Source: a bacterium (lineage in GTDB: Bacteria; Patescibacteriota; Patescibacteriia; JAACEG01; JAGUWE01). Taken from it: a stretch of DNA of 64,000 nucleotides. The number at the start of each line of letters is the position of its first letter. Positions within the stretch are counted from its first letter, which is position 1. The translations under genes and the position numbers were made by a program. Positions 4,342 through 40,701 of the stretch are shown here, piece by piece. A model generated the notes under the pieces. It was not told the origin of the DNA. It searched no databases and saw nothing but the letters and a program-made list of their open reading frames with translations. Where the stretch lies: the NCBI GenBank assembly GCA_043798995.1, contig JAZDOD010000011.1:4737-68736 (forward strand), written 5' to 3'.

Positions 4342-7300
4342 ATGAAATTTGTTCACCTGCATACCCATTCACATTATTCTTTACTTGATGGCTTAGCCAA
4401 GATTGATGAATTAATCAATAAGGCCAAGGAAGACTGTGCAGAAGCCTTGGCCTTGACTGATCACGGCGTAATGTATGGCGTGATTGAATTTTATCAGAAA
4501 GCTAAAGCCGCCGGTATTAAACCAATCATCGGCTGCGAGTCCTATATTGTGCCGCATTCCCGCCATCAGAAAGGGCCATTAGCCAACGAAGAGAGGCATC
4601 ATTTGATTTTATTGGCTAAAAATCAAGTAGGGTATCATAATCTGATTAGATTAACCACTTACGCTCATCTTGAAGGTTTTTATTACAAACCGCGGATTGA
4701 CTGGGAGCTTTTGGAAAAATATCACCAAGGGCTAATTGGTTTATCGGCTTGTCTTCAGGGTGAAATTCCCACTGCTATTTTAAGCGGTAATCTTAAAAAA
4801 ACAGAAGATGTTTTGGCTAAATATTTAAATCTTTTCGGCAGGGAAGATTTTTATTTAGAACTTCAGCATCACCCGACAATGCCGGAGCAAGCTCGGGTCA
4901 ATAAAGCGCTTTTGGATTTGGCAAAAAAATTCAAAGTCCAGGTAGTGGCAACTAATGACGTTCATTATTTAAACAAAGAAGACGCCGAAGCTCAGGATAT
5001 TTTACTTTGTTTACAGACCAAGAAAAAAAGAGAGGATAAGGATCGGATGAGTTTCTTGGGCGAGGATTTTTCTTTTAAATCACAGGAAGAAATGATTGCC
5101 AGTTTTCATGATTGCCCTGAAGCCATTCAAAATACCGTCAAAATTGCTGAAAGTTGCGATTTAGAAATAGAATTGGGCAAAGTAACTTTGCCGCACTTTG
5201 AGGTGCCAAGCGGTAAAACTGCCGATGAATTTTTACACGAGCTTTGTCTTGAGGGTTTGGCTTTGCGTTATGGCAAACGCTCCGGAGATGCGGAATATCT
5301 CGAGCGCCTTGATTATGAACTGAAAATTATTAAGAAAACCGGTTTTGCCTCATTTTTTTTGATTGTTCAGGATTTTGTCAATTGGGCAAAAAAACAAAAT
5401 ATTGTGGTGGGGCCGGGTCGCGGCAGTGCCGCCGGTAGTTTAGTTTCTTACGTTTTAAATATTACTGACATTGATCCTTTAATTTATGATTTGCTTTTTG
5501 AAAGATTTTTAAATCCAGAAAGAGTTTCCATGCCGGATTTTGATTTAGATTTTGCTGACATTAGGCGCGAGGAAGTTATTCGTTATGTTGAAGAAAAATA
5601 TGGCCGTGATCGGGTGGCGCAAATTATTACCTTTGGCACTATGGCTGCCCGAGCGGCAATCAGAGATGTCGGCCGGGTAATGGCGCTTTCTTACAGTTAT
5701 TGTGATAAAATTGCCAAAATGATTCCTTTTTTTTCCAGTTTATCTCAGGCACTTAACACCAATGTTGAATTAAGAGAATTGTATCTTAAAGATCCAAACG
5801 CCAAAGAATTACTTGAAACAGCGAAAAAATTGGAAGGTGTGGCTCGGCACGCTTCAACTCATGCCTGCGGCGTTTTAATCACGCGCGAGCCGCTTTATAA
5901 TTATGTACCTTTGCAATTTGCTTCAAGCGGCGACAAAACCATAGTTTCTCAATATTCTTTGCATCCGATTGAAGATTTGGGACTTTTAAAAATGGATTTT
6001 TTGGGCCTTAAAAATTTGACTTTAATTGAAAATGTGCACGAAATTGTCCAAAAAACCCGCGGAGAAGATATTAAAATAGAGAAAATTCCTTTGGATGATA
6101 AAAAAACTTATCGCTTGCTTCAGCGCGGCGAAACAACCGGCGTCTTCCAACTGGAATCAAGCGGCATGAGGAGATATCTTAAAATGCTCAAACCAACTGA
6201 ATTTGAAGACATTATCGCTATGGTTGCGCTTTATCGGCCGGGCCCGATGGAATGGATTCCTGATTTTATTGACCGAAAACACGGCCAAAAGAAAATTGTT
6301 TATCTTCATTCAAAACTGGAGCCGATTCTTAAAAAAACTTATGGCGTGGCTATTTATCAGGAGCAGGTGATGAAGATCGCTCGGGAGCTGGCCGGTTTTA
6401 CTTTAGGCGAGGCCGATATTTTAAGAAAAGCCGTTGGCAAAAAAATTCCTCATCTTTTGACCAAGCAAAAGAAAAAATTTATTGAAGGTTGTGTTAAAAA
6501 TAATGTTTCAGCCAAGTTAGCCGAGCAGGTTTTTTCTTTTATTGAGCCATTTGCCGGCTACGGCTTTAATAGGAGTCACGCGGCCTGCTATGCCATGATT
6601 GGTTATCAAACCGCTTATCTTAAAGCCAATTTTCCGGTTGAATTTGTGGCCGCGCTTCTGACTTCCGAAGAAGGCAGCACTGAAAAAATCAATCTTATTG
6701 TCCAGGAATGCCTGGCAATGGGTATTGAAGTTTTGCCTCCGGACATCAATGAGAGTTTTAAGCATTTTACAGTTTTGCCAAAAAGCGAAAAGCCTACCAT
6801 TCGCTTTGGCCTTTTGGCTATTAAAAATGTCGGTGAAAATGTCATCAATGTCATTGTTCATGAGCGAAAACAAAATGGTTCTTACCAAAATTTGGAAGAT
6901 TTTCTTAGCCGGATTAAATGCAAAGACCTAAATAAGAAATCATTGGAAAGTTTAATTAAAAGCGGAGCTTTGGATCGGTTTGGCGAACGGGCGCAAATGT
7001 TGTATAATATAGAAAAAATTTTATCCTTTATCAAAGAAATTCAGAAAAACAGCCAAGACAAACAAGCCAATTTATTTGGCGCTACTTCTTCTGGCCAGTT
7101 TGCCAAACTAAATTTGGAAAAATTTGAAACAGCTTCAGAAAAACAAAAATTGACCTGGGAAAAAGAACTTCTCGGCCTTTATATTTCAGCCCATCCTTTT
7201 AAAAGTTTTGAGCCATATTTAAAGGAAATAATGGTTAATTGTTACGAGATTAATAAATTAGCCCAAAAAGAGAATGATATTGAGTACGTTCCTGATGGCG

Positions 7301-8951: not shown

Positions 8952-8957
8952 TTTATT

Positions 8958-9141
8958 GTTTAAAGGTAATTGCTGTGGCTACCGACCATAGTGCTCCGTT
9001 AAGGGGTAGAGAGTTAGCTCTCCTAAGCCAATTATAAATCAAGCGCCTTGCCGACCTTAAAATTGGTAGGGAATTTGGGTGGAACCGCCCCACTAAGAAT
9101 GGGTCCCAAAAGTCATTTCGATTTTTGGGTTTTTATTTTTT
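8958..9141 (+). ncRNA. Candidate ~185-nt small RNA (unclassified)
   Basis: Runs from the strong promoter to a stem CCCAAAA/TTTTGGG plus U-run (9105-9141); only a non-protein-like 68-aa ORF overlaps. Confidence 0.25.
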
Positions 9142-9239
9142 GTATATTTTGTTCCGGCTTCCGAACCAGAATCCAGAACCTTAAAAAAATTGATTCCCGT
9201 TTCCGCGAGAATGACACATATTTTTTAACAAAAGAAAAA

Positions 9240-9288
9240 CCGTCTAAAATTTAAGTCACTTGACTTTATTTTAGACGGCTAGATTTTT
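9240..9288. terminator. Bidirectional intrinsic terminator
   Basis: Stem CCGTCTAAAAT/ATTTTAGACGG with T-runs on both strands; ends the convergent minus-strand Zn-ribbon genes. Confidence 0.5.
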
Positions 9289-9302: not shown

Positions 9303-9716
9303 CTATAAGTAGATTGGTTTTTCTTTTTTTCGCCTGGGATAATCCCATGGAGCGATTGACTGGAAGCCTTTGAAGCTTAAAATAGTGCCGCAACTTGAGC
9401 ATTTCGTTTCTCTGGCAATCTTTTCAATAAATTGGGTGCCGGCAATCTGTTCAAGCGATAATTGGACTTCAATTCTTTCAAGCTTTCTGCAACTTGGGCA
9501 GTGGATTTTAAGAACCTGGGACGATAAGGGAGTCAACGCGGTTTGGCAACCTCTGAAACTTATTTCCTGGCTGCAGTGAATACACCTCTTTTCCCTGATG
9601 ATCTTTTCAATATAAAGGGTTTTAGCGTCGCTTGAGGCCGAGACCTCAATCTCAAAATTGATTACCCGTTTACATTTGGTTCTGGTGCACCTGATGTTAA
9701 GAAATTCTATCGGCAT
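9303..9716 (-). CDS. Hypothetical double zinc-ribbon protein (internally repeated CxxC pairs)
   Basis: Four CxxC pairs in two repeated halves; strong SD AAGGAGGTGG upstream. Confidence 0.5.
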   Translation of the reverse strand: MPIEFLNIRCTRTKCKRVINFEIEVSASSDAKTLYIEKIIREKRCIHCSQEISFRGCQTALTPLSSQVLKIHCPSCRKLERIEVQLSLEQIAGTQFIEKIARETKCSSCGTILSFKGFQSIAPWDYPRRKKEKPIYL

Positions 9717-9732
9717 CTTCCACCTCCTTTAT

Positions 9733-9975
9733 TCATTTTATCCCTGCTTTTTGGCCAAAATAACCGCATTTTTTACATTCAACGCAAAGTTCCGCAACCG
9801 AGCCGGTCTTGGACTGGCCTTTTGTTTTCTTTAATTCTACATAACATTCCCCGCCGTTAAGAGCTGTTTCGCCGCATATAGGGCAACAGAAAGTGACCCC
9901 GCTCGGTAAAAATAATACCCGGGCAAAAGACGCGGTACCCATCAACGAACCAATACCTAATCTCGCTGTTTTCAT
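9733..9975 (-). CDS. Hypothetical zinc-ribbon protein
   Basis: CPICGE...CVECKKCG motifs; SD AAGGAGGG 7 nt upstream of ATG. Confidence 0.5.
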   Translation of the reverse strand: MKTARLGIGSLMGTASFARVLFLPSGVTFCCPICGETALNGGECYVELKKTKGQSKTGSVAELCVECKKCGYFGQKAGIK

Positions 9976-34449: not shown

Positions 34450-34710
34450 ATGTATTATTTTTATGTTTTACAATTTAAGAATAATAAAAAATTATATAAA
34501 GGAATTACAAATAATTTAAGAAAAAGAATAACAGATCATCGTTCTGGTCAGTCAAAATTTACTTCACGAAACGGCGATTTTAATTTAATTTTTTATGAAG
34601 CGTATTTAGATAAAAGAGATGCCATAGAGGCGGAAAGATATTTTAAGAGCGGTCACGGCAGAGAAGTATTGAGGCAAAAATTAAAATATTATTTTGGAAG
34701 GGTCGCATAG
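34450..34710 (+). CDS. GIY-YIG nuclease family small protein; C-terminus overlaps tRNA-Ser
   Basis: MYYFYVLQFKNNKKLYKGITNNLRKRITDH; stop codon TAG at 34708-34710 inside the tRNA. Confidence 0.8.
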   Translation: MYYFYVLQFKNNKKLYKGITNNLRKRITDHRSGQSKFTSRNGDFNLIFYEAYLDKRDAIEAERYFKSGHGREVLRQKLKYYFGRVA

Positions 34711-34780
34711 TGGTCTAGTGCGCCTGCTTGGAGAGCAGGTATGCCGCAAGGCATCGCGAGTTCAAATCTCGCCCCTTCCG
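34696..34780 (+). tRNA. tRNA-Ser (anticodon GGA)
   Basis: Hand-folded: acceptor GGAAGGG/CCCTTCC, 3-bp D stem, anticodon stem CCTGC/GCAGG loop TTGGAGA, long variable arm ATGCC-GCAA-GGCAT, T-loop TTCAAAT, discriminator G. Confidence 0.85.
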
Positions 34781-34848
34781 TTTGAGTTTTTTGCGGCAAA
34801 AATTATCAAAGCACTTGGCGTTTCTATTGAGGAGTTAATAAAATAACT

Positions 34849-35400
34849 ATGAACGAACATCTTTTGGTAGTTAATGAAAATGATGAAATAGTCAGATTGG
34901 ATACCAAAAAAAATTGTCATTCCGGCAATGGTATTTTACATCGTGCAATCACAATTTTTATTTTTAACGAAAAAAATGAAATCTTGCTGACAAAAAGAAG
35001 CTCTCTTAAAAAACTATGGCCTGAATTTTGGGACACATCTTGCTCTACCCATGTCCGGCCAGATGAAACATATGAACAGGCCGGCGAAAGACGATTATCA
35101 GAAGAGCTCGGTTTTTCGTGCAAGTTAAAATTTATTTTTAAATTTCAATATCAGGCCAATTTTCAAAATATCGGTTCCGAAAATGAAATTTGCGCTTTAC
35201 TGATTGGAAATTATGTAGGAGATATAAATCCGAATCTTAATGAAGTTTCAGAATATAAATGGATTGATTTTATAGAATTGAAAAGAGAAATCAATAGTCA
35301 AAATAATTATTCTCCATGGTTAAAAATTGCTGTTGAAAAATATTTAAAATCCGGCTCCGAATGTATGGGGAAAATAGCAGAAATTCTACCCCGGACTTGA
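34849..35400 (+). CDS. idi: NUDIX hydrolase, isopentenyl-diphosphate delta-isomerase type 1-like
   Basis: WDTSCSTHVRPDETYEQAGERRLSEELGF matches the Idi/NUDIX core. Confidence 0.7.
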   Translation: MNEHLLVVNENDEIVRLDTKKNCHSGNGILHRAITIFIFNEKNEILLTKRSSLKKLWPEFWDTSCSTHVRPDETYEQAGERRLSEELGFSCKLKFIFKFQYQANFQNIGSENEICALLIGNYVGDINPNLNEVSEYKWIDFIELKREINSQNNYSPWLKIAVEKYLKSGSECMGKIAEILPRT

Positions 35401-35471
35401 CATTTTTTATTTCTTGTGCTAAAATAATTTATCTGTTTTAAATCGCTCTTTCTAAAAATAAGGAGGATAAA

Positions 35472-35696
35472 ATGGTAGACATAAAAAAAATTATGCTAAT
35501 TACTTTTAGTTGTCAGAATTGTGGTTATATGATTGAACACTCGATAAGGAAAGATGCTGATTCAGTCAGAGAAGGTTTTCCCGTTCATTTTGTTAACAAT
35601 AAAGAACCGGAGGACGTAGTTATCTGTAAAAATTGTAAAGAAGAGTGGACGTTCCAACTCAGTATGCTTTTAGGCAAAAAGAACAATAAACGTTAA
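35472..35696 (+). CDS. Hypothetical zinc-ribbon small protein
   Basis: CQNCG...CKNCK; SD AAGGAGG; 5-prime UTR motif AATCGCTCTTT shared with the two cassettes downstream. Confidence 0.45.
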   Translation: MVDIKKIMLITFSCQNCGYMIEHSIRKDADSVREGFPVHFVNNKEPEDVVICKNCKEEWTFQLSMLLGKKNNKR

Positions 35697-35841
35697 AACC
35701 CTCAAATCCAATAGAAATATTCAGCGGCGGTTCGTAAGGGCCCCGCTTTTTTATTCCAAACCCAACCGCGCCGTAAGCCCGAGAAAAACTTTCCCTTGAC
35801 AAAAAAATTTCATTATGTTATTTTAATAAAAAGATAATAAT

Positions 35842-35988
35842 ATGAATAATTTTTCATTAAAGAAAATTAATTTATCAAATCTCTTAACCAATTTTTCTTT
35901 TGGTTGGTTTTTCTTTTTCTTTGCTTTTTTAAATTTGGTTAGGAGACCGTTAAAATATCAAATATTAAAAATAAAAAATCAAATATAA
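35842..35988 (+). CDS. Candidate 48-aa hydrophobic small peptide (cassette copy 1)
   Basis: MNNFSLKKINLSNLLTNFSFGWFFFFFAFLNLVRRPLKYQILKIKNQI; paralog at 36520-36663; followed by hairpin AAAGGCCTCC-TAATCAC-GGAGGCCTTT. Confidence 0.3.
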   Translation: MNNFSLKKINLSNLLTNFSFGWFFFFFAFLNLVRRPLKYQILKIKNQI

Positions 35989-36087
35989 GATAATTAGAAA
36001 TAAAAATAATAATATAAAGGCCTCCTAATCACGGAGGCCTTTAAAATTAGTTAATCGTTCTTTAATAAATTTTAAAAAGGAGGGGAG

Positions 36088-36399
36088 ATGACAAAAAAAT
36101 ATTTTACGTTTAGTGATGCCACTAAGGCAAATCAATCTTTGGAAGTAAAAAAGGTGGTGACTGCCTATCTTCAGGTTGAAAAAGGAGAGCCGGATCTCAT
36201 TCAACACATTTTAGAAAAAATGCGTGGGGACAGGTTAATAATTCATTTTCGCAAAAACGGATTTAAAGTAGAGGATGTCTTGAAAGATGTTACAGCAGAG
36301 TCGCTTTTTTTAGAAGGAGGAAAAGAAATACCAATTCAGAAGATAGCCAGGATTGAACGAGTTGAATTATTAGCCAAAGTGGAACTTTGGCTTTACTAA
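36088..36399 (+). CDS. Hypothetical protein (103 aa)
   Basis: Strong SD AAAGGAGGGGAG; downstream gene of cassette copy 1. Confidence 0.5.
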   Translation: MTKKYFTFSDATKANQSLEVKKVVTAYLQVEKGEPDLIQHILEKMRGDRLIIHFRKNGFKVEDVLKDVTAESLFLEGGKEIPIQKIARIERVELLAKVELWLY

Positions 36400-36519
36400 G
36401 AATTAAGAAGTCAAGAGGGCTTTTAGCCCTCTTTTTTCTTTTAAGTAATCACTAACTATTTTATTGGCTCTTGACTAATTTTTAAAAATAGCTATAATCA
36501 AAGAAATAATCAAAAAACA

Positions 36520-36663
36520 ATGAATAATCTTTTTTTAATCAAAGTTAATTTATTAAATCTCTTAACCAATCTTTCATTGGTTTTATTGCTCTTGCTTTTG
36601 AGCCGTTTTTTGGTTGGGAGACCATTAGAATGTCAAATATCAAATATCAAAAATAAAAAATAA
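36520..36663 (+). CDS. Candidate 47-aa hydrophobic small peptide (cassette copy 2)
   Basis: MNNLFLIKVNLLNLLTNLSLVLLLLLLSRFLVGRPLECQISNIKNKK; TTGACT-16-TATAAT promoter upstream; followed by hairpin AAAGCCTCCC-AACCAAAA-GGGGGGCTTT. Confidence 0.3.
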   Translation: MNNLFLIKVNLLNLLTNLSLVLLLLLLSRFLVGRPLECQISNIKNKK

Positions 36664-36779
36664 TTTAAGATAAATAACTAAAATTAGATAAAAGCCTCCC
36701 AACCAAAAGGGGGGCTTTAAATTTTATTTGAATCGTTCTTTTTAACAATTTTAAATCCAAAAAACCAAAGGAGGGTAAA

Positions 36780-36986
36780 ATGGAAATTATTTTAACAGAC
36801 GAACGAGACGATGAAGTTAAGAAAAAAATTTGGTTCTGCGACAAATGCGGAAAAATATTTAGAAACGGCGGTGATGAATTAACCAAGGCCGAAATAGCTA
36901 TCCTTAAAAAAGAGTTTTGCCAGGCAGGTGGTTGTCATTCAATAATTTATCGCGAGGTTTCGGTTAACCAAAAAATCGCACTTTAG
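36780..36986 (+). CDS. Hypothetical zinc-ribbon small protein (68 aa)
   Basis: CDKCG...CQAGGCH; SD AAAGGAGGG; downstream gene of cassette copy 2. Confidence 0.45.
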   Translation: MEIILTDERDDEVKKKIWFCDKCGKIFRNGGDELTKAEIAILKKEFCQAGGCHSIIYREVSVNQKIAL

Positions 36987-37099
36987 CATTTTGCTTAAAG
37001 GGTAGGCCAAGGCGTCTACCCTTATTTTTTATTTTGATTTATAATGAAAGTTAGCTAATCTCGGCCGTTTTTAGCAAAATAGCCAGATTTAATTTTATT

Positions 37100-39680: not shown

Positions 39681-39865
39681 CCCCCCTGTGGATAACTTTT
39701 AACAAAAGGACTTGACAAGTTTTTTTTAAAATAGTAAAGTAAAGGCACAATCAACAAACACCACACTCTATATCTATCAGCCATCGACGGCACCAAAAAC
39801 CCAAACAACCAACCCAACCCCACAAACAATCAAACCAAAACACATACTTTTTTTATTGGTAAAAA
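39681..39865 (+). repeat. 185-bp repeat copy 1: DnaA box + TTGACA promoter + CA-rich unstructured segment + U7 (candidate sRNA)
   Basis: TGTGGATAA at 39687-39695; ~95% identical to 40279-40463; (CAA/AAC)n-rich stretch ending CATACTTTTTTTATTGG. Confidence 0.5.
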
Positions 39866-40045
39866 ATTTTCCTTTGTCTTTCAGGGCTTATTAAAATGTC
39901 ATACTGAACTCGTTTCAGTATCTCACAGAGAATTCAAAAAGAGATCCCAAAACCCGCCTGCTCGCCTCGCTGAAGCTTATGACGAAGCGGGCCAACGAGG
40001 CAGGCAAATTCGGGACGACAACTTAAGAATAAGGAATAATAAGCC

Positions 40046-40278: not shown

Positions 40279-40463
40279 CCCCTTGTGGATAACTTTTAGC
40301 AAAAGGACTTGACAGGCCTTTTTTAAAATAGTAAAGTAAAGGCACAATCAACAAACACCACACTCTATATCTATCAGCCATCGACGGCACCAAAAACCCA
40401 AACAACCAACCCAACCCCACAACCCAATCAAACCAAAACACATACTTTTTTTATTGGTAAAAA
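40279..40463 (+). repeat. 185-bp repeat copy 2 (DnaA box + promoter + CA-rich segment), followed by a terminator hairpin
   Basis: TGTGGATAA at 40285-40293; downstream GAACTCC-TCATC-GGAGTTTTTTT. Confidence 0.5.
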
Positions 40464-40701
40464 CAGAACTCCTCATCGGAGTTTTTTTATTCTCCTTCGC
40501 CAGAATACCTCACCGCTTGCGGCGAGGATGAATGGCGAGGAGAACCCTTCCGAAGCTCGAAGAGCGAAGGAGGGTTGGCTTCGGAAGAATTCCGATACCG
40601 CACCGCTTGCGGTGCGGTTCTTTATTTGGCTTTGTTACTAAAAATTGTTATTATGATATTAACTTAATCGCGTTTAATTTTTATTAGTAGAGTTAATTTT
40701 T

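Follow-up and report, generated by a model that had tools for sequence, protein, structure and literature searches.

In the classical enterobacterial attenuators (pheA/pheL, pheST, leu/leuL, ilvGMEDA/ilvL, trp and his), a short open reading frame (ORF) bearing a run of codons for a single amino acid (or for the I/L/V group) overlaps the first of four RNA segments, which pair as 1:2 and 3:4 or else as 2:3, and a terminator stands just before the gene. The pheL leader peptide carries FFFAFFF, that of leuL LLLL. Here we describe two leader modules of similar layout in a member of the Patescibacteria (CPR), bacteria that make no amino acids, have very small genomes and in which few regulators are recognised. 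A full-text search found no paper on leader-peptide attenuation in Patescibacteria/CPR. We propose, with a probability of roughly 0.55, that both modules attenuate transcription by coupling it to translation, in the manner of the classical leader peptides.

The modules differ from the classical attenuators in several respects: there is no sequence or covariance-model relation, and the host belongs to the Patescibacteria/CPR. They precede Sm/Hfq-like and Zn-ribbon orphan genes, not biosynthetic or tRNA-synthetase genes. Their ORF lacks a Shine-Dalgarno sequence (SD) and usually runs through region 2, the codon run lies between regions 1 and 2, and the U-tract is weak in the window (the whole stretch of 64,000 nucleotides analysed).

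Other known designs are comparable in part. As in the uORF attenuators of bmrB-bmrCD, vmlR and lmo0919, which respond to antibiotics or translation stress and feature in Term-seq studies, ribosome stalling would switch between terminator and antiterminator, and genes outside metabolism can be the targets; most of those uORFs are far shorter and stand before resistance genes, whereas here they have a conserved hydrophobic design, span 31-48 codons and precede small proteins. In the B. subtilis PyrR/pyr and E. coli BglG systems, as here, the gene of a candidate RNA-binding protein follows a leader with terminator, antiterminator and anti-antiterminator; however, those leaders have defined protein-binding stem-loops and no conserved translated ORF. 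Finally, the UTP-sensitive attenuator of E. coli pyrBI is similar in its leader ORF of ~44 codons, in U-rich tracts that could pause the polymerase and, on the proposed reading, in a ribosome-polymerase coupling that decides termination. Its ORF extends through the terminator and it has no antiterminator, whereas our modules have a covarying antiterminator and an ORF whose stop lies ~30 nt ahead of region 3.

Layout of the modules

An earlier note on this DNA had described two tandem cassettes, each made of a promoter, a hydrophobic-peptide ORF, a hairpin, a UTR motif, an SD and a small gene; all of these are present at the positions it gave. The features of module 1 are as follows.

35796-35824 (+): promoter TTGACA-17-TATTTT, TG-extended, conserved in L001, L002 and L012
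35842-35988 (+): leader ORF, 48 aa, MNNFSLKKINLSNLLTNFSFGWFFFFFAFLNLVRRPLKYQILKIKNQI; predicted 5' UTR of ~11 nt, without SD
35880-35891 (+): region 1, DNA TCTCTTAACCAA, RNA UCUCUUAACCAA, within the ORF (codons 13-17)
35900-35907 (+): proximal partner 1', DNA TTGGTTGG, RNA UUGGUUGG
35935-35948 (+): region 2, DNA TTGGTTAGGAGACC, RNA UUGGUUAGGAGACC, encoding L-V-R-R-P; partner of region 1 or region 3
36016-36042 (+): regions 3 and 4, hairpin AAAGGCCUCC-UAAUCAC-GGAGGCCUUU, -16.6 kcal/mol; candidate attenuator terminator
36053-36063 (+): UTR motif AATCGTTCTTT, predicted partner of the SD at 36077-36083 (weak, no better than shuffles)
36088-36399 (+): 103-aa gene, with SD and its ATG at 36088
36413-36433 (+): terminator of ordinary type behind the 103-aa gene; its T-tract is long

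Region 1 is the candidate 5' strand of an anti-antiterminator, and the 5' arm and loop of the hairpin (36019-36031) are the antiterminator partner of region 2. Eight Phe fall within codons 18-29 of the ORF. Read from the sequence, 1' (UUGGUUGG) and UUAACCAA can form a small hairpin, present in the minimum free energy (MFE) fold, and the U-rich Phe-codon run follows directly after 1' at 35908-35928; this structure may serve as a pause hairpin. The U-tract after the main hairpin is weak (UUUAAAAUUAG) and fails the + strand terminator scan. The same hairpin also scores as a terminator on the minus strand.

Module 2 repeats the arrangement.

36471-36498 (+): promoter TTGACT-16-TATAAT, 11/12 matches
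36520-36663 (+): leader ORF, 47 aa, MNNLFLIKVNLLNLLTNLSLVLLLLLLSRFLVGRPLECQISNIKNKK
36558-36569 (+): region 1 (UCUCUUAACCAA), 1:2 duplex -15.4 kcal/mol
36576-36582 (+): proximal partner 1', AUUGGUU (DNA ATTGGTT), read as pairing with AACCAAU at 36564-36570
36610-36623 (+): region 2, DNA TTGGTTGGGAGACC, RNA UUGGUUGGGAGACC, 2:3 duplex -19.6 kcal/mol
36691-36718 (+): regions 3 and 4, hairpin AAAGCCUCCC-AACCAAAA-GGGGGGCUUU, then AAAUUUUAUUU, -16.3 kcal/mol
36731-36741 (+): UTR motif AATCGTTCTTT
36780-36986 (+): 68-aa Zn-ribbon gene (CxxC...C..GGCH), an orphan
36998-37023 (+): ordinary terminator of the 68-aa Zn-ribbon gene

Here the hairpin with its tract UUUAAAUUUUAUUU qualifies as a terminator. 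In both modules the downstream gene is without a promoter of its own after the hairpin.

A third cassette nearby has no leader; its small Zn-ribbon gene has the same UTR, as the earlier note had pointed out.

35397-35425 (+): promoter TTGACA-17-TAAAAT, with TG, 11/12 matches
35441-35451 (+): UTR motif AATCGCTCTTT, resembling an anti-SD; predicted partner of the SD at 35460-35466
35472-35696 (+): 74-aa CxxC...CxxC Zn-ribbon gene, with the common UTR and no leader

This sister cassette is missing from the related strains L001 and L002. Its motif:SD hairpin is weak (8 bp, -8.6 kcal/mol, z -1.8). The consensus AATCGYTCTTT has three exact copies, all in the three cassettes, and with one mismatch is not above chance; it pairs with the SD in five of six MFE folds, and an SD-sequestering role is unproven because the energies are no better than those of shuffles. 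Two other motifs exceed expectation: TTGGTTRGGAGACC has four matches at up to two mismatches against 0.52 expected, the two exact ones being the modules, and AATCTCTTAACCAAT has three against 0.36. As for the CA-rich sRNA-like repeats nearby, their pairing with the leader reaches significance in module 2 alone (1-3 of 300 shuffles), module 1 showing none, and is for this reason a lead only.

Mutually exclusive helices and their covariation

Both modules hold four RNA segments that pair either as 1:2 and 3:4, the latter being the G+C hairpin, or alternatively as 2:3, region 2 being complementary both to region 1 and to the hairpin's 5' arm and loop. The two states exclude each other and have almost equal energies; in module 1 the 1:2 duplex has -15.8 kcal/mol. 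In each of the nine full copies, no stretch of the leader upstream pairs better with region 3 than region 2 does. The 2:3 duplex reaches -16 to -23 kcal/mol, compared with -8 to -10 +/- 2 for dinucleotide shuffles, and is equalled by 0-1 of 500 shuffles per copy.

Folding predictions point to a switch. The complete leader folds as 1:2 and 3:4 in five of the seven window-clade copies, the nascent RNA without region 4 adopts the 2:3 pairing in all seven, with 12-13 pairs, and with region 1 and the codon run masked, 2:3 becomes the MFE structure of the full-length leader in four. Hairpin 3:4 has -14 to -19 kcal/mol in every copy. Only L028, L029 and L012 have a good U-tract after it; window copies continue UUUAAA...

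Covariation was followed in an alignment (A4) of nine copies that includes the distant relatives L028 and L029; the family is small (9 full copies, 4 lineages), and most of the covariation comes from these two distant sequences. Helix 2:3 is paired in 89.8% of cells, with four pairs changed on both sides, against 24-53% in slid controls; in module 2, an A-to-G change in region 2 is matched by U-to-C in region 3. Helix 3:4 is paired in 92% of cells, with two pairs changed from C-G to U-A. For helix 1:2 the value is 98.8%, all changes being wobble-compatible bar one cell. Helix 2:3 of L028 extends over 16 bp and is mostly of different sequence; in L029 alone the 1:2 helix is weak (-6.9 kcal/mol), region 2 being held by a local hairpin instead.

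These results refine what the earlier note had read from the two modules. It had seen compensatory changes between their hairpins, which do not hold cleanly for that pair: the 5' arm is nearly identical (GCCTCC), the register is shifted by one base and U-A becomes U.G. Compensatory exchange, C-G to U-A, appears only once L028 and L029 are added. Of the options that the note had offered, the leader-peptide attenuator is favoured by the exclusive, near-isoenergetic helices and the covariation of the antiterminator; the toxin option found no specific support.

The modules are ~60-70% identical overall and 100% identical in regions 1 and 2. Regions 1-3 stand out as islands of identity in diverged modules because of their triple complementarity; in known attenuators, too, the segments that take part in several pairings are the most conserved (PMC1262725). 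A recent local duplication without function of its own, the similarity reflecting ancestry only, would fit the adjoining position of the modules and the great rarity of the family (4 and 2 homologues of the downstream proteins). We find it barely credible in view of the contrast in identity just given, the pairing-preserving changes, and the persistence of copies in diverged strains and two distant lineages.

The leader reading frame

An ATG ORF of 31-48 codons spans region 1 in 9/9 copies, with the ATG conserved. By chance the frame would be open in 1.1% of shuffles for module 1 and 2.4% for module 2 (1-3% overall). From the ATG through AGG-AGA-CCN, the frame is kept in three deep lineages although their lengths differ by 3, 18 and 21 nt: the distance from ATG to GGAGACC is 107, 104 and 86 nt in module 1, module 2 and L028, always 2 mod 3. 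Translation itself appears to be selected, since the frame survives these differences. There are two exceptions (L001_m1 and L029), where the stop falls just before or inside region 2, as in classical trp; L002 ends early.

The amino-acid sequence is much less constrained. The earlier note had called the differences between the two peptide ORFs mostly nonsynonymous, and the count bears this out (18 nonsynonymous and 2 synonymous codon differences). Between close strains, ~9 synonymous to 16 nonsynonymous substitutions indicate nearly neutral drift. Distant copies agree in AGGAGACC even at synonymous sites. The note's further suggestion of constraint at the RNA or DNA level rather than the peptide level agrees with this drift and is at odds with the conserved reading frame.

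What persists is the hydrophobic run. The eight Phe codons of module 1 are eight Leu codons in module 2, at exactly the same positions; by our own arithmetic, random single-base nonsynonymous changes would give Leu at all eight with a chance of ~(3/8)^8. Between close strains the run is unchanged while flanking residues vary. Phe runs occur in module 1 (FGWFFFFFAF) and L029 (FGWFFF) and a Leu run in module 2 (LVLLLLLL), all of them also compatible with a transmembrane (TM) helix. The family as a whole is not specific for one amino acid, because L028 has a mixed I/L/V segment without a single-amino-acid run.

No copy has an SD upstream of the leader ORF except for a short AAGGA in L012, while the downstream genes have AAGGAGG. 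Because the predicted 5' UTR measures 0-15 nt, initiation on the leader would need a leaderless mode or an A-rich UTR. Within the 64 kb, the only two intergenic short ATG ORFs with at least six of seven identical residues are these leaders, and by exact look-up none of six leader peptides was ever called as a gene.

The peptide has a hydrophobic segment of TM length (18-22 aa) in all four lineages and a conserved basic tail, (R/G)RP-x-(K/E); M-x-N, IN and GW are also held in common. The ORF could accordingly be a real gene for a small membrane protein with a single TM helix and a basic tail, the first cistron of a two-gene unit in which the hairpin, as a leaky intercistronic terminator or stabiliser, sets the product ratio, the RNA alternatives being incidental or tuning translation. 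The common residues, the conserved frame, the strong promoter and the F-to-L exchange, conservative for a TM helix, would suit such a protein. Yet its C-terminal tail is dispensable (shortened in L001_m1, L029 and L002), its substitutions between close strains are near-neutral and it has no SD; nor does this account explain the complementarity of region 2 and terminator with its compensatory changes, or the synonymous-site identity of AGGAGACC. We consider it a serious if unlikely alternative.

The TM-like core and basic tail are also the reason for which the toxin-like option was retained, as a locus akin to type I toxin-antitoxin systems in which mRNA structure and an antisense RNA restrain the translation of a toxic hydrophobic peptide. 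A peptide of 31-48 aa, a structured mRNA and the minus-strand terminator score of the module 1 hairpin are in keeping with it. Against it, minus-strand promoters are weak (9/12) and at chance density for AT-rich DNA, no toxin family matches, the ORF tolerates truncation, and the downstream genes depend on read-through; such a locus is very improbable.

Copies in other genomes

The earlier note had staked its reading on further copies and covariation in other genomes; five close and two distant relatives carry copies. Strains whose YchF is as low as 86% identical still have them, as do two distant lineages whose downstream protein is 33-36% identical. The leader precedes at least four different genes.

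Beyond these, the searches were negative. At the gathering threshold, Rfam found in the 64 kb two tRNAs only, and no relevant family, T-box and riboswitches included, up to E 10; the best sub-threshold match was Phe_leader RF01859 (31.2 bits vs 55), on the minus strand and covering the hairpin only. Mismatch pattern searches and nhmmer profiles detected no copies in the 64 kb other than the two modules, and a match at 9121-9269(-) was rejected as marginal and of low complexity. The pattern TTAACCAA-N(25-55)-TTGGTTRGGAGACC was used for collection scans: genome contigs gave two chance matches, in coding DNA of Verrucomicrobiales and Rhodoferax, metagenome contigs gave L003 and otherwise only chance matches, and viral contigs, with a looser pattern, seven chance matches. 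In the synteny of YchF homologues at 68-73% identity (Jorgensenbacteria-like L007-L011, L026 and L027), the leader is absent.

The downstream genes

The 103-aa product of module 1 is predicted to adopt an Sm/Hfq-like fold with an N-terminal helix and a five-stranded bent sheet, from a 6-sequence AlphaFold model of pLDDT 69.6; an earlier AF2 model of the protein from four near-identical sequences was unusable (pLDDT 49). Pfam Hfq or LSM do not match it, and one remote homologue has a weak, sub-threshold DUF2642 match (E 0.003). No Pfam/NCBIfam assignment was obtained for the Sm/Hfq-like protein, the Zn-ribbon orphan or a 67-aa orphan, and the Zn-ribbon Pfam matches of the 74-aa gene are all sub-threshold. 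Among 5.8 billion proteins, the downstream proteins have four and two homologues, the two being those of the 68-aa Zn ribbon. BLASTP found no homology between the 103-aa and 67-aa proteins or between the 68-aa and 74-aa Zn ribbons; hhalign gave a weak hint (E 0.066).

The Sm-like gene family stands behind the leader in three deep lineages (module 1 of the window, L028 and L029), and the leaders of module 2 and L012 precede other genes. The 103-aa gene is the ancestral downstream gene, the leader having later been copied before unrelated tiny genes.

The linkage raises the prospect of protein-mediated attenuation, in which the Sm/Hfq-like product binds U-rich and/or A-rich tracts of the leader, favours one of the competing folds by stabilising it, regulates itself in this way and acts on the paralogous leader in trans, the ORF being secondary. 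Hfq binds U-rich and A-rich stretches and a hairpin plus U tail; the leader offers a U-rich stretch between regions 1 and 2, an A-rich spacer and a hairpin with U tail, and regulators behind their own attenuator are known, e.g. PyrR and BglG. We nonetheless think this quite unlikely: A/U-rich tracts are the background composition of the genome, the fold comes from the AlphaFold model described above and is without a Pfam Hfq/LSM match, the conserved ATG and frame are left unexplained, and module 2 and L012 precede other genes.

Proposed mechanism

Under the leader-peptide attenuator that we favour, a strong sigma-70-like promoter would start a leader RNA in which a minimal 5' UTR is followed by a short ORF, its hydrophobic codon run consisting of Phe for module 1 and Leu for module 2. 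With no ribosome suitably placed, 1:2 would pair and 3:4 form, so that most transcripts would end before the small gene. A ribosome held on the run between regions 1 and 2 would instead cover region 1; region 2 would then be free to form 2:3 with the hairpin's 5' arm and loop, no terminator would form and RNA polymerase would read through. A ribosome running through region 2 to the stop codon would also permit termination.

The analysis shows the ORF with its conserved frame, the three exclusive helices with their energies and covariation, and the lack of a separate promoter for the downstream genes; translation of the leader ORF, termination at the hairpin and slow decoding of the run as the signal are inferred. 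Such slow decoding might be caused by a short supply of aminoacyl-tRNA for Phe, Leu or the branched-chain residues, or by translation stress in general. Against a classical role, the downstream genes are unconnected with the metabolism of amino acids. Streptomyces cases of similar look failed mutational tests (PMC1262725).

A more specific version would make this a CPR-specific module whose translated hydrophobic leader senses the supply of particular amino acids in an organism unable to synthesise them, its paralogues retuned from Phe to Leu to branched-chain, gating an Hfq-like chaperone and tiny effectors; possibly the Hfq-like protein would feed back on the U-rich/A-rich leader. We regard this version as doubtful and put it forward with little confidence.

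Implications

If the attenuator reading is true, the oldest known form of RNA-based nutrient sensing would operate in CPR, implying tight coupling of transcription and translation, and the attenuator would be used beyond biosynthetic operons, for an Hfq-like protein and Zn-ribbon orphans. The Phe and Leu paralogues would then be a natural experiment in re-specifying an attenuator. At ~210 nt, the leader element is a small mutable construct for in vitro testing, and through it the function of a family of small orphan proteins can first be approached. Should the CPR-specific version also be true, a sensor of host nutrients would be wired to post-transcriptional control in an episymbiont.

Cassette row and leader modules

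Three small-gene cassettes stand in a row at 35.4-37.0 kb on the plus strand, each served by a separate sigma-70-like promoter and a separate ordinary terminator. Modules 1 and 2, two paralogous leaders, lie within the second and third cassettes. In the list, regions 1 to 4 are leader RNA segments.

35397-35696, plus strand: first cassette (promoter, AATCGCTCTTT UTR, 74-aa Zn-ribbon gene), without leader
35796-35824, plus strand: module 1 promoter
35842-35988, plus strand: module 1 leader ORF, ATG, 48 codons
35880-35891, plus strand: module 1 region 1, UCUCUUAACCAA
35900-35907, plus strand: module 1 proximal partner, UUGGUUGG
Between proximal UUGGUUGG and region 2, plus strand: module 1 U-rich run, encoding F-S-F-G-W-F-F-F-F-F-A-F
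35935-35948, plus strand: module 1 region 2, UUGGUUAGGAGACC
Between region 2 and hairpin, plus strand: module 1 A-rich spacer
36016-36042, plus strand: module 1 hairpin, regions 3 and 4, AAAGGCCUCC-UAAUCAC-GGAGGCCUUU
36053-36063, plus strand: module 1 UTR motif, AATCGTTCTTT
3' of the module 1 UTR motif, plus strand: strong SD, then 103-aa gene with ATG at 36088
36471-36782, plus strand: module 2, parts ordered as in module 1, with the 68-aa Zn-ribbon gene downstream

The conserved islands of the two modules occur at a frequency well above chance, and exact copies of the UTR motif are found only in these three cassettes. Since neither module has a plus-strand promoter between hairpin and downstream gene, transcription of the downstream genes must start at the leader promoter and pass the hairpin.

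Immediately 5' of the variable row, an 86-aa GIY-YIG nuclease ORF extends into the 5' end of tRNA-Ser(GGA) (34450-34781), an arrangement typical of an insertion hot spot. Further small multi-CxxC Zn-ribbon proteins, of 137 aa (with repeated CxxC pairs) and 80 aa, are encoded at 9303-9975 on the minus strand, and such small Zn-ribbon genes seem unusually frequent in this genome. Located 3' of the 137-aa gene (8953-9110, minus strand) is a G+C-richer, apparently structured non-coding stretch (…GGGGCGGTTCCACCC…GGTCGGCAAGGCGC…GGTCGGTAGCCACAGC) that matches no Rfam family at threshold and may be an unrecognised RNA gene.

Alternative structures of the leader RNA

Three helices compete in each module: the 12-bp 1:2 duplex, or anti-antiterminator (-15.8 kcal/mol in module 1, -15.4 in module 2); the 2:3 antiterminator, formed by region 2 with the 5' arm and loop of the hairpin (12/14 bp; -16.2 and -19.6 kcal/mol); and the 3:4 candidate terminator hairpin, at about -16.5 kcal/mol. 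In every copy examined, the best partner of region 3 anywhere upstream in the leader is region 2; of 500 shuffles that preserve dinucleotides, no more than one pairs equally well. The full-length leader folds as 1:2 plus 3:4 in five of the seven window-clade copies, while nascent RNA ending 5' of region 4 adopts 2:3 in all seven. When a stalled ribosome is mimicked by masking region 1 plus the codon run, 2:3 stays the full-length minimum-energy fold in 4/7 and is near-isoenergetic in the others. These alternative helices follow the four-segment scheme of classical attenuators. The scheme also accounts for the retention of AACCA in the "terminator" loop and for the identity of regions 1-3, which stand as islands in modules otherwise only ~60-70% alike.

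The comparative set for this leader family is small, with nine full copies from four lineages in the alignment. There, 89.8% of the cells of helix 2:3 are paired and four pairs have both sides changed, against 24-53% paired and 0-1 double-changed pairs in slid controls. The terminator helix has 92% of its cells paired and two C-G to U-A exchanges. In L028, a distant relative, helix 2:3 is a 16-bp duplex of largely different sequence (UAAGGAGACCGGUUAA with UUAGCUGGUUUCCUUA, -22.7 kcal/mol); in L029, another, a local hairpin rather than region 1 holds region 2. Both have terminators with proper U-tracts; behind the window hairpins there is UUUAAA instead of a U-run. The RNA switch is thus conserved with compensation in distant copies, and it is quite probable that some terminator/antiterminator switch is present.

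The leader frame

The leader ORF, called by no annotation pipeline, is conserved as a frame. An open frame of its length arises in only 1-3% of shuffles, and the stretch that begins at the ATG and closes with GGAGACC measures 107 nt in module 1, 104 in module 2 and 86 in L028, always 2 modulo 3. In the two exceptions, L029 and the module 1 copy of the close relative L001, a stop codon falls immediately before or inside region 2, which is equally compatible with attenuation. No copy has an SD before the ORF; predicted 5' UTRs span 0-15 nt, and the L028 leader mRNA would be essentially leaderless.

The peptides share M-x-N, IN, GW and (R/G)RP-x-(K/E) around a hydrophobic core that is Phe-rich in module 1 and L029, Leu-rich in module 2 and mixed Ile/Leu/Val in L028, and they resemble small membrane proteins with a single transmembrane pass. 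At AGGAGACC, synonymous positions are identical in distant copies; there is therefore an RNA-level constraint on top of coding. Where module 1 has its eight Phe codons, module 2 has Leu codons throughout, and among close strains the residues between the run codons vary while the run codons are unchanged, a pattern that fits regulatory codons. Amino-acid specificity is plausible for the window modules; we do not take it as a family rule, because L028 has no single-residue run. Slow decoding, whatever its cause, is the safer statement of the signal.

Proposed mechanism

Structures, frame and covariation are shown by the analysis; for translation, termination and signal we infer the following. 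By default, region 1 and the proximal UUGGUU would first make up a small hairpin; region 2 would next take over region 1 through a UCUCUU/AGGAGA toehold, and region 3 would finally be free to pair with region 4, ending transcription. A ribosome slowed on the run of hydrophobic codons that separates region 1 from region 2 would cover region 1, so that region 2 would capture region 3 once made and the polymerase would read into the small gene. A ribosome moving over region 2, or halting at its edge, would permit termination again. We put the odds that the modules are translation-coupled attenuators slightly above even (roughly 0.55).

In its workings the element would resemble the attenuators of pheA, leu and ilv. 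It has the structural features of that class (ORF, 1:2, 2:3 and 3:4) but departs from it in three respects: its leader ORF lacks an SD, the genes it would regulate have no link to amino-acid metabolism, and no Rfam family matches. Published Streptomyces look-alikes failed mutational tests (PMC1262725). In full-text literature searches, no account of leader-peptide attenuation in Patescibacteria/CPR came up.

Two copies of another unit, 92% identical, lie at 39682-39866 and 40279-40464 on the plus strand: a promoter (GGACTTGACA-N17-TAAAGT), then ~120 nt of G-poor, C/A-rich sequence (…CAACCAACCCAACCCCACAA…) with a T-run at the end. The unit has no plus-strand ORF, looks like a duplicated small-RNA gene and matches nothing in Rfam. 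Its CA-rich core forms a predicted -33.9 kcal/mol duplex with GU-rich parts of the module 2 leader (equalled in 1-3 of 300 shuffles); pairing with the module 1 leader is not significant.

Relatives and cassette turnover

The window derives from a Patescibacteria (CPR) MAG whose YchF shares 73% identity with its counterpart in a Candidatus Jorgensenbacteria genome. The modules are present in the close relatives L001, L002, L003/L004 and L012, among which cassettes are gained and lost; DNA-pattern scans of genome, metagenome and viral collections gave no further copies. We compared window 35397-35750 with L001 2850-2910 and L002 120-160, and window 36471-36986 with L002 780-840. The 74-aa Zn-ribbon cassette is missing in L001 and L002, where a NUDIX gene directly adjoins the module 1 promoter, and in L002 a clean deletion has removed module 2, promoter included, as far as the 3' end of its 68-aa gene. 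In L012 (319-719; YchF 86% identical), a leader and UTR of the module 1 type stand before two different tiny genes, of 67 aa and 55 aa, homology with the window ending near the SD. The JGI name of the 67-aa protein, "L-ribulose-5-phosphate 3-epimerase UlaE", is impossible for a 67-residue orphan.

The downstream proteins of the window are orphans: 5.8 billion proteins include 4 relatives of one and 2 of the other. A profile search of 1.84 billion cluster representatives found two remote homologues of the 103-aa protein (33-36% identity), both preceded by a homologous leader (L028 and L029). At L028 (4560-5306), the attenuator and the next SD are ~150 nt apart, and this interval contains a second SD-like AAAGGGGGTGA with a 14-codon GTG ORF behind it. 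The leader and the Sm-like gene (5001-5306) have between them an unrelated gene of 101 aa (4712-5017), which overlaps the Sm-like gene by 17 nt.

UTR motif and downstream genes

The motif AATCG(C/T)TCTTT is similar to the 3' end of 16S rRNA, and in 5/6 minimum-energy folds it is paired to the downstream gene's strong SD, with energies no better than those of shuffles. In L029, the GTTCTTT at the corresponding place simply belongs to the U-tract of the terminator. Through this motif, control could have a second layer at translation, though this is unproven.

The 103-aa protein has a predicted Sm/Hfq-like fold and matches neither the Pfam Hfq nor the LSM model; this is therefore fold resemblance, not family membership. 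It might bind U-rich or A-rich parts of its leader and autoregulate, as a rival or a complement to the ribosome-coupled reading, a possibility raised by the ancestry of the unit. In three deep lineages the leader goes with a gene of the Sm-like family; the unit was therefore ancestrally leader plus Sm-like gene, and the leader copies before the Zn-ribbon and 67-aa genes are secondary.
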